The notes below the pieces were generated by a model. That model saw nothing but the letters and a program-made list of their open reading frames with translations, ran no database searches and was not told the origin of the DNA. DNA of 55,850 bases from Pseudomonadota bacterium. GTDB taxonomy: Bacteria > Bdellovibrionota_C > UBA2361 > OMIW01. The translations under genes were made by a program, and so were the position numbers. Location of the stretch: NCBI GenBank assembly GCA_900299205.1, contig OMIW01000129.1, forward strand, positions 1 through 55,850, in the 5' to 3' direction. How positions within the stretch are numbered: position 1 is the first letter of the stretch; each line of letters begins with the position of its first letter. Below, piece by piece: positions 23,824 to 27,751 of the stretch.

Positions 23824-24477
23824 TTAAACTAGGACACCCGTTGTGAATGCTCCGTCGCTCTGGAGCAGAGTCTGGAAGCATTTGAGATGCCATTGAAAGG
23901 AGTCCTTCGCCGCCAATGTTAGCCGTGAAACATCGGCGGGAGCGACCATCTCCTCGCACATTGAGCAAAAGTCAGACCATTCAGCCTTAGTGCGACGGCC
24001 ACTTCCAGAGAAGTACGAGTACCCCATTCCATTGCTAAATTTAAAGTGCTTCTCGAGGTGGCCCGATAAATAGATACCTCCCAGACGGGACCCCTCAGAT
24101 ACATACAACATTCCAATCCATGCTAATTCAGTACTCAGTGACGGGGGTGGTGGTACAATCGGAACGGAAAGAGACACAACTCCTAATGAAGAGAGGTACT
24201 CTCGATCCTTATCGAGTGCCGGCGTCCGCCGACGCATGTCAGCAAATGTACGAAGGCGTTCTGATGGGCATTCAGGGATACTTTCCTCAACTCTTGTATG
24301 CATAACACTGAGTAACTCAAGAATAGTTCGGTATTGGCTCAGATTCAGATCTTTGCGCATAAGCGGAAATACTCTCTCGGTGTCTAGATGCAACGACTGT
24401 GTCTCTCGCCGCAACGTCATCATTACCCCTTCGCCATCCTTTTCCTCGAACACTCGCCCCTCCGTGATTAATTTCAA
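23824..24477 (-). CDS. Heme-oxygenase-like protein (BphO-like family)
   Basis: N-terminal LRRETQSLHLDTE (the LRxxTxxxHxxxD proximal-His motif) and a central MLYVSEGSRLGG block typical of bacterial heme oxygenases. The start may be the internal MMTLRRE. Confidence 0.55.
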   Translation of the reverse strand: MKLITEGRVFEEKDGEGVMMTLRRETQSLHLDTERVFPLMRKDLNLSQYRTILELLSVMHTRVEESIPECPSERLRTFADMRRRTPALDKDREYLSSLGVVSLSVPIVPPPPSLSTELAWIGMLYVSEGSRLGGIYLSGHLEKHFKFSNGMGYSYFSGSGRRTKAEWSDFCSMCEEMVAPADVSRLTLAAKDSFQWHLKCFQTLLQSDGAFTTGVLV

Positions 24478-24558: not shown

Positions 24559-26466
24559 GTGAAATTATCTCTCCGTCAGCCCGACCCGACAATCATCTCC
24601 TTCTGTACTCCAGCGGGCAAGCAAGGGGTTATTAGCATCCCACGGCATGGGCTCATCGCATTGCCGATATCACCCCTTACCCGAAGTATTTTTCGCTCCA
24701 TCGTCGCTGAGACCCGATCAAGAGCGGAGCTTGATGCTGAATCATTCGTCCTTCGGAGAACAGGAAGCATTCTCTCCTCTGCCCCTCCTCCGTCAATTGT
24801 GATCAGTCTGCACGGCTTCTCTCAAGCACGGCAATCCCTCGCTGAGATGCTCAACCTCCTCGATTTCTTGACAGAGCAAGGACGCCTCCAAGGAGCACGC
24901 TGTCCAGATTGTGATCTAAAAGCTGAGGCAACATCGTCCGACAACCTTGCTGACGTAGTTTTAAATATTGTCCAGGGAACGCCCGCGATTATCTCAATCT
25001 CACCGAGCCTTTCACCAGATGAATTTTGCCGAATCTTTTCCCACCTGATCGTTGACGATCACCGATGGGATGTATTCGATATCCCCAACGGTTTGCTAGC
25101 CGCTGCCCGTTCAGTTTCCGGCATTATATTTCAGGGCTTAATGACTGAGGATAAAATTCCTCTTCTTAGAAACCTGATATCGAAACACAGCCAGCTATTA
25201 GCGGCCCCTATTGAGATTCGACAAACTAACGAGCCTTACACACTTTCACGATTTTTGGGGATTTTGCCCACCTGCCCCTCATGTGGCCGCTCCACTCCGC
25301 CGATTTCGTCTTCCTCTATTCTCGACACCCTTCATTCAACAAACGAAACAGCGCTTAATCAACCACTTTCATGGTATCCAAGCATTCAACATTTTCTGCA
25401 TAATCCCCCATCGTCAATACCCAAGACATCGCTACCCCCATCTATTGCGGATCGGATTGGTAGTTTCCCAGTAGGTTCCTCGCTGACAACTCGGGTGGCT
25501 GATATGCCCCTCGAAGAACGGTTGGCCCTTCGATTCCAAACCACTCCGCATCTTGCCGAGGGGCTACTCCTCATTGAACTTCCGTCCTATGGCCTGACCG
25601 AAACCCAAGCTCTATCGCTTCAGGAGTGGATTACCCATCAGAAGGAATACTATCTTGGTGTCATTACGCTCGGAGGTTCGGAGGTGCTTTCGACAATAGC
25701 CGATGCCGGACCGAATATGACAATCCTTGAGGAACAGCCGCAACGAGCCCACCCTGCACCTCGTCGCCCTCCACCCGCTCCAACTCTGCCAACTACTCCT
25801 CCGAATAAGGCGACTGAACTCGACCTTGCGCATTACCTTTGCGACCGGCAACCATCTCGAAATCCTTTTCTCTGCGCACTCCCTCTCTTCAAACGGTTGA
25901 CAGCCCTTTACGCGAAACTAACCGCGGCCAAGGTTCTGGGTATATCCTCTAGTTGTCTCTCGCTCTTTGGACAACGCTCACTGCGCTGCGATGAGTGTGG
26001 AGGCCAAGGACGGGCAGAGTCCAAAACTATTCTTCTCCCCTGCAATATCTGCCTCGGCTCAAGATATCAATCATCCGTAAATCAACTTGTTTATCGAGGA
26101 CTTCCTTTCACCGCACTCTTTAATCATTCCGCAGATTCGCTTTTGCCAATATTTGAGAACATCCTTCCTGTTCAGCACGATCTCACGGCTCTTTCATTAG
26201 CAGGCTTGGGAGGAATTGCCTTGGGAACGAGCGAAGATACGATGACGATTGAAGACCGTTGTCGATTTGCCCTCATGGTATGCCTCAGTAATCAAAAAGG
26301 GGGAAGAATCTCGATTCGTGGGATGGCAGGGATTTTTTCGGATGAAGAGCGAACCTCCCTTGAGCTATGCTTTCAATGGTTCGCCCAAAGGGGGGGGGTA
26401 TCTTTAACGGTGGATGGGGTGTTAACCGACTTATCCACTGGTCGCGGTGCCTGTCTTTTCGGATGA
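24559..26466 (+). CDS. UvrA-like protein with degenerate ATP-binding motifs (predicted pseudo-ATPase)
   Basis: 635 aa, collinear with UvrA landmarks: IPRHGLIAL.. (UvrA [9 protein letters not shown]), RCPDCD, CPSCGRS, LIELPSYGL (LDEPSIGL), ADAGPN, RCDECGGQG...PCNICLGSRYQ, and LAGLGGIALG. Both Walker A sites are absent or eroded, and the LSGGE signatures and both Walker B sites are eroded. GTG start. Confidence 0.7.
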   Translation: MKLSLRQPDPTIISFCTPAGKQGVISIPRHGLIALPISPLTRSIFRSIVAETRSRAELDAESFVLRRTGSILSSAPPPSIVISLHGFSQARQSLAEMLNLLDFLTEQGRLQGARCPDCDLKAEATSSDNLADVVLNIVQGTPAIISISPSLSPDEFCRIFSHLIVDDHRWDVFDIPNGLLAAARSVSGIIFQGLMTEDKIPLLRNLISKHSQLLAAPIEIRQTNEPYTLSRFLGILPTCPSCGRSTPPISSSSILDTLHSTNETALNQPLSWYPSIQHFLHNPPSSIPKTSLPPSIADRIGSFPVGSSLTTRVADMPLEERLALRFQTTPHLAEGLLLIELPSYGLTETQALSLQEWITHQKEYYLGVITLGGSEVLSTIADAGPNMTILEEQPQRAHPAPRRPPPAPTLPTTPPNKATELDLAHYLCDRQPSRNPFLCALPLFKRLTALYAKLTAAKVLGISSSCLSLFGQRSLRCDECGGQGRAESKTILLPCNICLGSRYQSSVNQLVYRGLPFTALFNHSADSLLPIFENILPVQHDLTALSLAGLGGIALGTSEDTMTIEDRCRFALMVCLSNQKGGRISIRGMAGIFSDEERTSLELCFQWFAQRGGVSLTVDGVLTDLSTGRGACLFG

Positions 26467-26584: not shown

Positions 26585-27268
26585 ATGGTCAGAAAAAAAA
26601 TTCTCCTCCCTCTCCTTAATATTTGTTTCGTCGGTCAAATATCATCTGCTGATGATAACCTTATCATTTTCCCTCAGAGGGTCGGGGAAATATCTGCGCA
26701 GCTTGGTGAGGATAAGCTCGCGACTATTTACGGCAAGAATAATTTGACGCGAGAAATCTTGCTTGAGGATGATGGCCGATCTCGGTGTGCTACCATCCTT
26801 TTTAGAGGCACCCAACGAGAACTCAGTATCTTCTGGAGAGATGATTCCTCTGACTATGACTCAACTCCCCCGTCGCAGGCTCAGGAAAAGTGTGCGGCGA
26901 ATGGGCACTATCGTAAACCGGAGAGGATTGATATCACCCTAGGCGCCGATCGAAAGCCGTCCGCTTGGAGGACGGTGGAGGGAGTCTTTGTGGGTATCTC
27001 CCTTCTGTCGCTCGAAAAGATAAATGGGGCACCAGTAGAATTCGAGGTAAGTGAAAGCTGCGGAAATGGGGGAATTTTAAGCTGGAGGGGAGGATCTCTG
27101 GAGAAGTCGCACAAGCTTTTCTCAGACTCCAGAATTTCATTTAATCCGGAGGATGTAGAGGTGGCACGAAAGAGGGATGTCGTTTCGTCAACGGACCTCT
27201 CAGATTCAGTCAAGTCGGGTATGTTTCTCGATCGAATCAGCTTTTACCTCTTACCCGCAACAGAATAA
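26585..27268 (+). CDS. Secreted hypothetical protein
   Basis: 227 aa with signal peptide MVRKKILLPLLNICFVGQISSA|DD. I recognise no family. Confidence 0.5.
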   Translation: MVRKKILLPLLNICFVGQISSADDNLIIFPQRVGEISAQLGEDKLATIYGKNNLTREILLEDDGRSRCATILFRGTQRELSIFWRDDSSDYDSTPPSQAQEKCAANGHYRKPERIDITLGADRKPSAWRTVEGVFVGISLLSLEKINGAPVEFEVSESCGNGGILSWRGGSLEKSHKLFSDSRISFNPEDVEVARKRDVVSSTDLSDSVKSGMFLDRISFYLLPATE

Positions 27269-27526: not shown

Positions 27527-27751
27527 ATGACTTCTCGGAGAAATTCGCAGGGGGGGTTCACTGATACCAGCGTATTATTGAAACTGCTCGGCTTGACTGT
27601 TGTCATAGCGGTGGTAACCTGCTGTAATCGTTGGATTAAGACTACGAACATGAAGCGGAACGGCTATGTGGAATACGACCCAAGCAATCCGGCTTTTGAT
27701 GATCCCGATAAAGGTCGTGGATTTACCGTTCGGGGAGGGGGGGTTAGATAA
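27527..27751 (+). CDS. Small single-pass membrane protein (hypothetical, 74 aa)
   Basis: GGAGGGGG lies immediately upstream of ATG 27527. One hydrophobic helix (VLLKLLGLTVVIAVVTCC) and a Gly-rich tail. No homology support. Confidence 0.35.
   Translation: MTSRRNSQGGFTDTSVLLKLLGLTVVIAVVTCCNRWIKTTNMKRNGYVEYDPSNPAFDDPDKGRGFTVRGGGVR

Follow-up and report, generated by a model that had tools for sequence, protein, structure and literature searches.

The UvrA-like gene at positions 24559-26466 (+ strand) of the window, i.e. the whole 55,850-nucleotide stretch of contig OMIW01000129.1 analyzed here, was shown, as judged from the predicted protein, to encode a class-I-type UvrA descendant that has been neofunctionalised and is catalytically dead. 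In the list of open reading frames (ORFs), the gene has a GTG start and, with the stop codon included in the coordinates, specifies 635 amino acids (aa), so that its product is ~305 residues shorter than canonical UvrA; the orthologue at locus L001 (9761-11653) has an identical MKLSL start and a frame that is also full-length. The catalytic motifs have gone and the gene is under purifying selection, the two features by which a pseudo-enzyme is operationally defined. As a whole, these data would be best explained by a selected, dead UvrA descendant that works as an ATP-independent scaffold and likely binds DNA or a DNA-protein complex through signature domain II and its C-terminal zinc finger (signature-II/Zn3), an explanation held here with moderate confidence.

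Searches with the single protein detected UvrA over the C-terminal part only. In phmmer against PDB UvrA entries, residues 429-584 matched T. maritima UvrA 670-828 (E 2.2e-14), and the NCBIfam UvrA equivalog matched residues 439-583 only (E 2.8e-13), at 49 bits and therefore below the curated TIGR00630 cut-off of 729.8; a single-sequence search of Pfam, including the UvrA_inter and UvrA_DNA-bind models, gave no significant match (best E 0.07). The match was extended by a profile of six family sequences, which hhalign aligned over residues 233-619 with ~411-898 of a UvrA profile (98%, E 6.5e-14), the N-terminal 232 residues on their own aligning at 16-164 with UvrA 22-182 (92%, E 6.6e-7). The corresponding hidden Markov model (HMM) of the family found 3PIH in the PDB (E 4.1e-23) in three collinear segments, 107-250 with 113-264, 236-388 with 382-536 and 459-657 with 661-863. 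An AlphaFold2 (AF2) model built on an alignment of the family with 20 UvrAs reached a predicted local distance difference test score (pLDDT) of 82.6 and a predicted template-modelling score (pTM) of 0.71, with disorder only at residues 1-5, 57-69, 390-415 and 626-635. In Foldseek against the PDB, the best 39 matches of this model were all UvrA (best E 7e-24; query-based template-modelling score, TMq, <=0.64) and class IIa UvrAs were among the structural matches, while the middle domain matched 4dfc_B, the isolated UvrB/Mfd-binding domain of E. coli UvrA from the UvrA-TRCF core complex (target-based score, TMt, 0.70; root-mean-square deviation 3.6 Å). Since UvrA rows could bias folding, a control model was made from the six family sequences only; it gave a pLDDT of 66, a pTM of 0.39 and a nearly identical secondary-structure map, and its top 39 Foldseek matches were again all UvrA (best E 1.4e-16). 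By sequence comparison and modelling, the predicted protein was confirmed as a true UvrA homologue, collinear over its whole length, and the similarity was significant by phmmer, hhalign, family HMM and Foldseek alike, in line with the first-pass annotation of the window, which had proposed a UvrA-derived pseudo-ATPase from the DNA letters.

The peptide pairings in that annotation compare the window protein with E. coli UvrA. Each held against the real E. coli K-12 sequence (L-INS-i being one of the aligners used), one of them, at the second CxxC, with the qualification given below. In the Walker A-I region, a 33-residue E. coli segment pairs with SIPRHGLIALP-ISPLTRS--IFRSIVAETRSR; the nine residues of Walker A become P-ISPLTRS, in a loop that is 2-3 residues shorter and has lost all P-loop glycines, and the position of the Walker lysine, Lys37, is occupied by Arg42, which is invariant in the family. 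The first CxxC pairs RCPDHD of E. coli with RCPDCD. Further on, the E. coli stretch from signature I to Walker B-I, TLSGGEAQRIRLA...VMYVLDEPSIGL, pairs with DMP--LEERLALRF...LLLIELPSYGL, the core of Walker B-I changing from VLDEPSIG to LIELPSYG with the Asp replaced by an invariant Glu340 and the catalytic Glu by Leu341 (E340, P342, Y344 and G345 are all invariant in the family). In the C-terminal half, DQSPIGRTPRSN pairs with LCDRQPSRN, the Zn3 segments RCEACQGDG and PCDQCKGKRY pair with RCDECGGQG and PCNICLGSRY, and the stretch from signature II to Walker B-II, TLSGGEAQRVKLA...LYILDEPTTG, pairs with TMTIEDRCRFAL...ISI--RGMAG. Here LYILDEPTTGL is replaced by ISIRGMAGIF (ILDEPTTG by SI--RGMAG) and IEHN of H-loop II by TVDG (LTVDG). 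The loss of Walker A, signature and Walker B that had been claimed was thus borne out by the E. coli alignment and by all family members. The same applied to the second Walker A, said to have given way to a Pro-rich linker: the alignments show a gap at this place, and the linker stands in for the N-terminal half of nucleotide-binding domain (NBD) II, Walker A-II included (E. coli ~610-685, K646), its Pro-rich segment AHPAPRRPPPAPTLPTTPP (residues 397-415) being predicted as disordered by AF2 (pLDDT <50 at 390-415). The longer linker of distant members (e.g. LFSVTPGEGELIADAIL in P0011) was considered as what remains of the strand, loop and helix of Walker A-II, an idea that was dropped when hhalign of this segment against the UvrA profile gave no match.

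What is retained of the UvrA body comprises the NBD-I sheet and helix, a composite zinc module, signature domain I, and signature domain II with Zn3, together with three or four strands of NBD-II; the last ~60 UvrA residues are missing. Eight of the 12 zinc-ligand cysteines of UvrA are left, all invariant in the family, in two predicted modules (C115/C118/C239/C242 and C477/C480/C495/C498). The earlier statement that the zinc-module cysteines are kept therefore stands for these eight and fails for Zn module 2, which has gone. All alignments show a continuous gap of the family opposite E. coli UvrA ~257-405, corresponding to the deletion of Zn module 2 and of the insertion domain (~290-400). 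The C239/C242 pair was aligned with the Zn1-distal CxxC by MAFFT and by hmmsearch segment 1, and with the Zn2-distal CxxC by hhalign, L-INS-i and hmmsearch segment 2; it matches both because everything between them has been deleted, and this ambiguity is, at the level of the alignments, the expected look of a deletion junction. The pairing of CPSCGRS with CPICGYS proposed in the first-pass annotation was accordingly half right, the second CxxC being composite and aligning with the Zn1-distal CxxC as well. Between the two CxxC pairs, the sequence match of the UvrB/Mfd-binding-like domain to UvrA in the family profile is weak and collinear, and the block that holds both pairs (aa 113-245) has a constant length of 133 aa across the four lineage representatives that were compared. 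Mutation of R216 and E222 in E. coli UvrA disrupts the UvrB/Mfd interface (PMC3025350); these contacts are replaced here, R216 by L202 in the window protein (Leu or Thr across the family) and E222 by an invariant S208. For the two nucleotide sites with their lost motifs, the comparisons showed that neither composite ATP-binding cassette (ABC) site is predicted to assemble and that the nucleotide cycle of UvrA should be impossible for the window protein.

The distribution of the family was examined at large scale. A word-indexed search of 5.8 billion proteins returned one orthologue (P0002, 80%) and ordinary UvrAs, and the family profile added no orthologue to these. Exhaustive HMMER against 1.84 billion representative proteins gave four more clusters (P0011, P0012, P0013 and P0014), at 33-40% by HMMER and 30-35% by alignment, followed in rank by ~650 UvrAs that matched only residues ~430-585. 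Further members came from a cluster look-up (P0164-P0166 and P0169, all full-length) and from a metagenome scan (locus L015). The family as found consists of five 50%-identity clusters among the 1.84 billion representatives, four of them with intact full-length members that are 29-80% identical to the window protein. All members belong to a narrow lineage of Bdellovibrionota that are uncultured and, at least in part, from freshwater, the closest genome being a Bdellovibrionota metagenome-assembled genome of the Lake Mendota series. The most divergent member, P0014 (L014 111-1034), is 307 aa long and begins at the relic of Walker B-I (LVLLEYPTYGL); its contig measures 1.1 kb, with 110 nt upstream of the gene. 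A truncated gene call or a frameshift could explain this, as could a natural shorter form of the family with the C-terminal part only. Many of the best non-family matches in the HMMER list (P0015-P0020 and others) were 1500-2300-aa “double” UvrAs made of two tandem UvrA bodies, such as the Planctomycetota protein MBN1441489.1, which is annotated as UvrA. Those of ~1800 aa were considered as special relatives and then set aside, their high scores reflecting two matched copies per protein.

Uninterrupted frames of 630-695 codons were found in six independent assemblies (the window, L001, L010, L011, L013 and L015; from ENA, JGI and Logan), and the motif replacements are common to all family members, along with 84 invariant positions that include all eight Cys. 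As all orthologues from independent assemblies show the motif losses, these are not sequencing errors, a possibility left open by the first-pass annotation. The ratio of nonsynonymous to synonymous substitution rates (dN/dS) was 0.27 between the window and L001, uniform along the gene (0.20-0.39 per 100 codons), and 0.26 in the independent pair L013 and L015; neighbouring genes gave lower values, between 0.03 and 0.22. Intact orthologues and these ratios, which the earlier annotation had named as the means of telling the gene from a decaying one, indicate that the UvrA-like gene is maintained by purifying selection and is neither a pseudogene nor an artefact. In the comparison of the window with L001, the dS of the gene (0.41) fell below the values of each of the four neighbours included (0.51-1.05), although its dN was among the highest; codon or composition constraints might account for the low dS.

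Among known families, the protein was compared with class I UvrA, the damage sensor of nucleotide excision repair (TIGR00630/PRK00349; structures 2R6F, 3PIH, 3ZQJ and 9GY7), with which it is collinear from N- to C-terminus and shares the overall fold, both signature domains, a Zn1-type CxxC pair around a UvrB-binding-domain-like insert, and the four Cys of Zn3. It differs from class I in having no insertion domain, no Zn module 2, no Walker-A half of NBD-II and no C-terminal ~60 residues, in the absence of both Walker A motifs, LSGGE, the Walker B Asp-Glu pairs and the H-loop His, and in the replacement of the UvrB/Mfd contacts and of three of the four tested DNA-binding Arg. On sequence grounds, none of the catalytic features that define class I UvrA is present in the window family. 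Class IIa UvrAs (D. radiodurans UvrA2, DrrC and Ecm16; 2VF7 and 7SH1) are likewise reduced paralogues outside canonical nucleotide excision repair (NER) with fewer accessory domains. They have neither Zn module 1 nor the UvrB-binding domain, both of their ATPase sites are functional, and Ecm16 needs ATP hydrolysis (PMC9328131). The window family is the opposite, a Zn1-type module and an inserted domain being kept and the ATPase sites gone. The engineered T. maritima UvrA d117-399 (6N9L), a strong match in both sequence and structure, resembles the window protein in being a truncated body of 640 aa without the insertion domain; however, it is a laboratory deletion from which the UvrB-binding domain was also removed, and both of its nucleotide sites are active (crystallised with ADP). 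With pseudo-enzymes and degenerate ABC sites the family has in common the lost catalytic motifs, the purifying selection and, presumably, a function in binding or as a scaffold. In most known cases of degenerate ABC sites, one site remains competent or nucleotide is still bound, whereas the window family has neither composite site left and one of its Walker-A subdomains has been removed altogether. No model for the family was found in Pfam, NCBIfam or PADLOC (the anti-phage defence models of the latter gave no meaningful match for four family members), and the full-text literature searched contained no ATPase-dead UvrA class and no UvrA-derived pseudo-enzyme; a preprint on “UvrA-like” proteins in cyclic di-GMP networks deals with ordinary Pseudomonas UvrA homologues and is irrelevant here. 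The earlier remark that no such family had been described agrees with these results and, as far as could be found, the window family represents an undescribed, degenerate and narrowly distributed class within the UvrA superfamily.

Within the family, signature-II/Zn3 is the best conserved part, with a mean pairwise identity of 46% compared with 28-38% for the other folded domains and 17% for the linker. In UvrA this module lines the DNA-binding groove. Because it is both the most conserved part and the one lining the DNA groove in UvrA, signature-II/Zn3 is proposed as the functional surface. Basic residues are kept at the equivalent of E. coli R722 (K458), one of four residues implicated in DNA binding (PMC3025350), and, in most family members, at that of R695 (R430). 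A DNA-binding role of the R695 position is suggested by Bacillus UvrA mutants (K680/R691). The conservation of the module suggests that the window protein may act as a zinc-stabilised, ATP-independent scaffold, and that DNA, or a DNA-protein complex, would most likely still be bound through signature-II/Zn3. Such binding would be static, with no nucleotide-driven damage-verification cycle, and canonical loading of UvrB would be lacking because the two UvrB/Mfd-contact residues are replaced. Arg42 and Glu340 may pair with each other and so fill the empty nucleotide pocket.

Several points weigh against this reading. Joint mutation of R712, R722, R724 and R730 abolishes DNA binding in E. coli UvrA (PMC3025350), and of this quartet R722 alone stays basic in the family (K458), R712 being replaced by an invariant Thr, R724 by a hydrophobic residue and R730 by C, A, E or Q. 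The signature-II domain carries almost no net charge (+2, 0, +2 and +1, compared with +5 in E. coli), so that DNA may be bound weakly or no longer. The pairing of R42 with E340 is a guess from sequence alone, and the high-confidence AF2 model was built with UvrA rows and may be biased by them, the UvrA-free control scoring lower as described above. Moreover, the UvrA-like gene is the fastest-evolving in the syntenic block, its product sharing 29% identity between the window and L011 compared with 46-89% for nine neighbours, which fits a relaxed or shifted function. Finally, the function itself is read from conservation alone. With these points taken into account, a static, ATP-independent DNA- or complex-binding scaffold is favoured with modest confidence.

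Gene order was compared in five loci, the window and the four others with enough flanking DNA (L001, L011, L013 and L015). These four share the order pilT, pilU, a divergent heme-oxygenase-family gene, the UvrA-like gene and a membrane ORF of 74-76 aa; farther downstream, L001, L011 and L015 have a GcvT/YgfZ-like gene, a sigma-70 gene and pilB, with pilC confirmed in L001 and L011. The neighbourhood of the orthologues is therefore conserved, as the first-pass annotation had suggested should be checked, and the divergent heme-oxygenase-like neighbour it had named was likewise recovered, by its Pfam match and in all five loci (Table 1). The heme-oxygenase-family gene is also fast-evolving, with 46% identity between the window and L011. 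In the divergent intergenic region between it and the UvrA-like gene, a five-locus alignment searched for an operator or SOS-like motif contained no conserved block, and promoter and terminator scans were no better than shuffles. The membrane ORF, for which Pfam holds no family, comes directly after the UvrA-like gene in L001 (11762-11986), L011 (6917-7141), L013 (12117-12347) and L015 (10018-10248), has the core motif LLKLLGL.VV.AVVTCCNRW and is under very strong purifying selection (dN/dS 0.03). The secreted protein described earlier as following the UvrA-like gene does adjoin it in the window but is not a conserved neighbour; this 227-aa ORF is missing from all four syntenic loci and was inserted in the window's lineage only. 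Upstream, mfd lies ~3 kb from the UvrA-like gene, before pilT, in three of the five loci (window, L001 and L013); the gene before pilT is mreB in L011 (80-1336, - strand) and an 872-aa Ala/Pro-rich ORF in L015 (1610-4228, + strand), so that a breakpoint of rearrangement lies immediately to the left of the conserved block. Linkage to mfd was dropped as functional evidence, since L011 and L015 have other genes in its place and synteny covers the whole block. More generally, synteny extends over the entire 20-kb block in this narrow lineage, so that adjacency says little on function. Elsewhere the window consists of housekeeping chromosome (metG, yidC, mnmE, lepB, malQ, pgm, gyrA, gpsA and ccm), and no canonical uvrA, uvrB or uvrC was found within its 55.8 kb. 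In the region of the UvrA-like gene, the + strand is rich in C (GC skew -0.19).

Table 1. Features of the UvrA-like gene and of its neighbours in the window (positions in nucleotides of the window; aa, residues of the window protein).
Feature	Position	Strand	Evidence and remarks
Complete coding sequence, predicted UvrA-derived pseudo-ATPase	24559-26466	+	635 aa, GTG start; ORF list
N-terminal half of dead NBD-I (aa 8-112), beta strands and the helix that normally follows Walker A	24580-24894	+	hhalign 92%, E 6.6e-7; AF2 strands 11-16, 22-27, 31-35, helix 39-60
Walker A-I relic, LPISPLTRSIF in place of 13 UvrA residues	24661-24693	+	E. coli UvrA alignment
First CxxC (C115, C118), equivalent to the proximal CxxC of UvrA Zn module 1	24901-24912	+	aligns with RCPDHD; invariant in family
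Domain inserted between the CxxC pairs (aa 119-238), placed and predicted to fold like the UvrB/Mfd-binding domain	24913-25272	+	Foldseek 4dfc_B; family profile 107-250 with T. maritima UvrA 113-264
Second CxxC (C239, C242), composite junction	25273-25284	+	aligner-dependent pairing with Zn1-distal or Zn2-distal CxxC
Signature domain I (aa 246-334)	25294-25560	+	hhalign, alignment, family invariants
Invariant family-specific WYP in signature domain I	25372-25380	+	family invariants; no UvrA counterpart
Degenerate signature MPLEER in place of LSGGEAQR	25504-25521	+	alignment (LSGGE to MP--LEE)
Walker B-I/D-loop relic, LLLIELPSYGL for VMYVLDEPSIGL	25564-25596	+	alignment and family invariants
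H-loop I relic, ITLGGS for VVVEHD, His gone	25663-25680	+	alignment (VEHD to TLGG); G372 and G373 invariant
Disordered Pro-rich linker (aa 390-418)	25726-25812	+	pLDDT <50 at 390-415; gap opposite the UvrA Walker A-II region
Signature domain II with C-terminal zinc finger Zn3	25813-26301	+	phmmer, NCBIfam, family profile; pLDDT 85-97
Zn3 cysteines C477, C480, C495, C498	25987-26052	+	hairpin 5 residues shorter than in UvrA
Degenerate signature II, MTIED in place of LSGGE	26242-26256	+	alignment
Remnant of the C-terminal half of NBD-II	26302-26430	+	hhalign and alignment
Heme-oxygenase-family gene, divergent	23824-24477	-	PF01126, E 5.6e-7, C-terminal part of the model only; present in five of five loci
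227-aa ORF with N-terminal signal-peptide-like sequence	26585-27268	+	no Pfam match; between the UvrA-like gene and the membrane ORF in the window only
74-aa single-pass membrane ORF	27527-27751	+	tblastn, 92% to the small ORF of L001

Other explanations of the family can be set against these data. The protein could be a protein-protein regulator or decoy of NER or transcription-coupled repair that forms a heterodimer with canonical UvrA, or binds UvrB or Mfd through its UvrB/Mfd-binding-like domain, the repair machinery being tuned or sequestered in this way without ATP. A regulator of UvrA/UvrB had also been suggested in the first-pass annotation, next to a DNA- or damage-binding adaptor, and is the one of these suggestions that the changed UvrB/Mfd contacts weaken. 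The domain between the CxxC pairs, with the position and predicted fold of a UvrB/Mfd-binding domain and an equal-length block in the four lineages compared, speaks for such a role, as do the retained NBD-I core and signature I, which are parts of the UvrA body, and the presence of mfd ~3 kb upstream in three of five loci. However, the interface residues have changed (R216 to Leu or Thr, E222 to Ser), the domain itself is less conserved than signature II (32% compared with 46%), and mfd is not adjacent in L011 and L015, in a syntenic block that makes the linkage little informative, so that this explanation is considered unlikely. Somewhat less likely again is an exaptation of the UvrA fold for a non-DNA role, in which a structural or adaptor protein containing zinc would work together with its conserved neighbours; candidate partners would be the type IV pilus ATPases, the YgfZ/GcvT-like protein, the small membrane protein and the product of the heme-oxygenase-family gene. 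Such a role would agree with the loss of most known DNA-binding arginines and of the UvrB contacts, with a near-neutral whole protein (isoelectric point ~6.2-7.0), with the conservation of the divergent gene and the following membrane ORF in five loci, and with family-specific invariants, e.g. WYP in signature I, that have no UvrA counterpart. It is weakened by the synteny of the 20-kb block throughout the narrow lineage, in which adjacency is no evidence of a functional link, by the lack of a shared regulatory motif in the divergent intergenic region, and by the fact that the most conserved module is exactly the DNA-contacting one of UvrA.

A cryptic NTPase that binds nucleotide by non-canonical residues such as Arg42 and Glu340, both family-invariant and placed at the K37 and Walker B Asp positions, appears highly improbable given the lost P-loop glycines, the loop shortened by 2-3 residues, the replacement of the catalytic Glu by Leu and of the H-loop His by Gly, the two unrecognisable LSGGE signatures and the physical deletion of the Walker A-II half-site, which together leave no composite ABC site. 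The view that the gene is a decaying uvrA pseudogene, or that sequencing or assembly errors mask intact motifs, could draw on its being the fastest-evolving gene of the block with a dN/dS above that of its neighbours (0.27 compared with 0.04-0.21 between the window and L001); it is effectively refuted by the uninterrupted 630-695-codon frames in six independent assemblies at identities down to 29%, by dN/dS values of 0.27 and 0.26 in two independent pairs, uniform along the gene, and by the same motif replacements and 84 invariant residues in all members. The selected scaffold with a DNA- or complex-binding signature-II/Zn3 surface therefore remains the preferred explanation.

UvrA is the textbook ATP-driven damage sensor, and the coupling of its two ATPase sites to DNA recognition and UvrB loading is debated. 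Against this background the family resembles an evolutionary “deletion experiment” in which the ATPase sites, the insertion-domain clamp and half of NBD-II were discarded and the zinc modules, the signature domains and an adaptor-type domain were kept, so that it reveals what portions of the fold can exist by themselves and on which surface (signature-II/Zn3) value is retained without ATP. It is conceivable, although rather doubtful at present, that this is the first natural nucleotide-free UvrA descendant, a zinc-stabilised pseudo-ATPase in which the lesion-sensing signature-II/Zn3 module of UvrA and a domain of the UvrB/Mfd-binding type were kept. In predatory-type Bdellovibrionota these parts would then act as a static sensor of DNA damage or structure, or would serve to regulate NER and transcription-coupled repair or to act as a decoy in them. 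If true, it would constitute a new class of UvrA paralogues, opposite in logic to class II, in which the ATPase was kept and the adaptor domain lost. The very narrow distribution of the family limits its general importance. Should the protein bind DNA or repair partners, the new paralogue class would come with a new mode of NER regulation; should its role be unrelated, it would clearly exemplify how an ABC-ATPase scaffold can be exapted.

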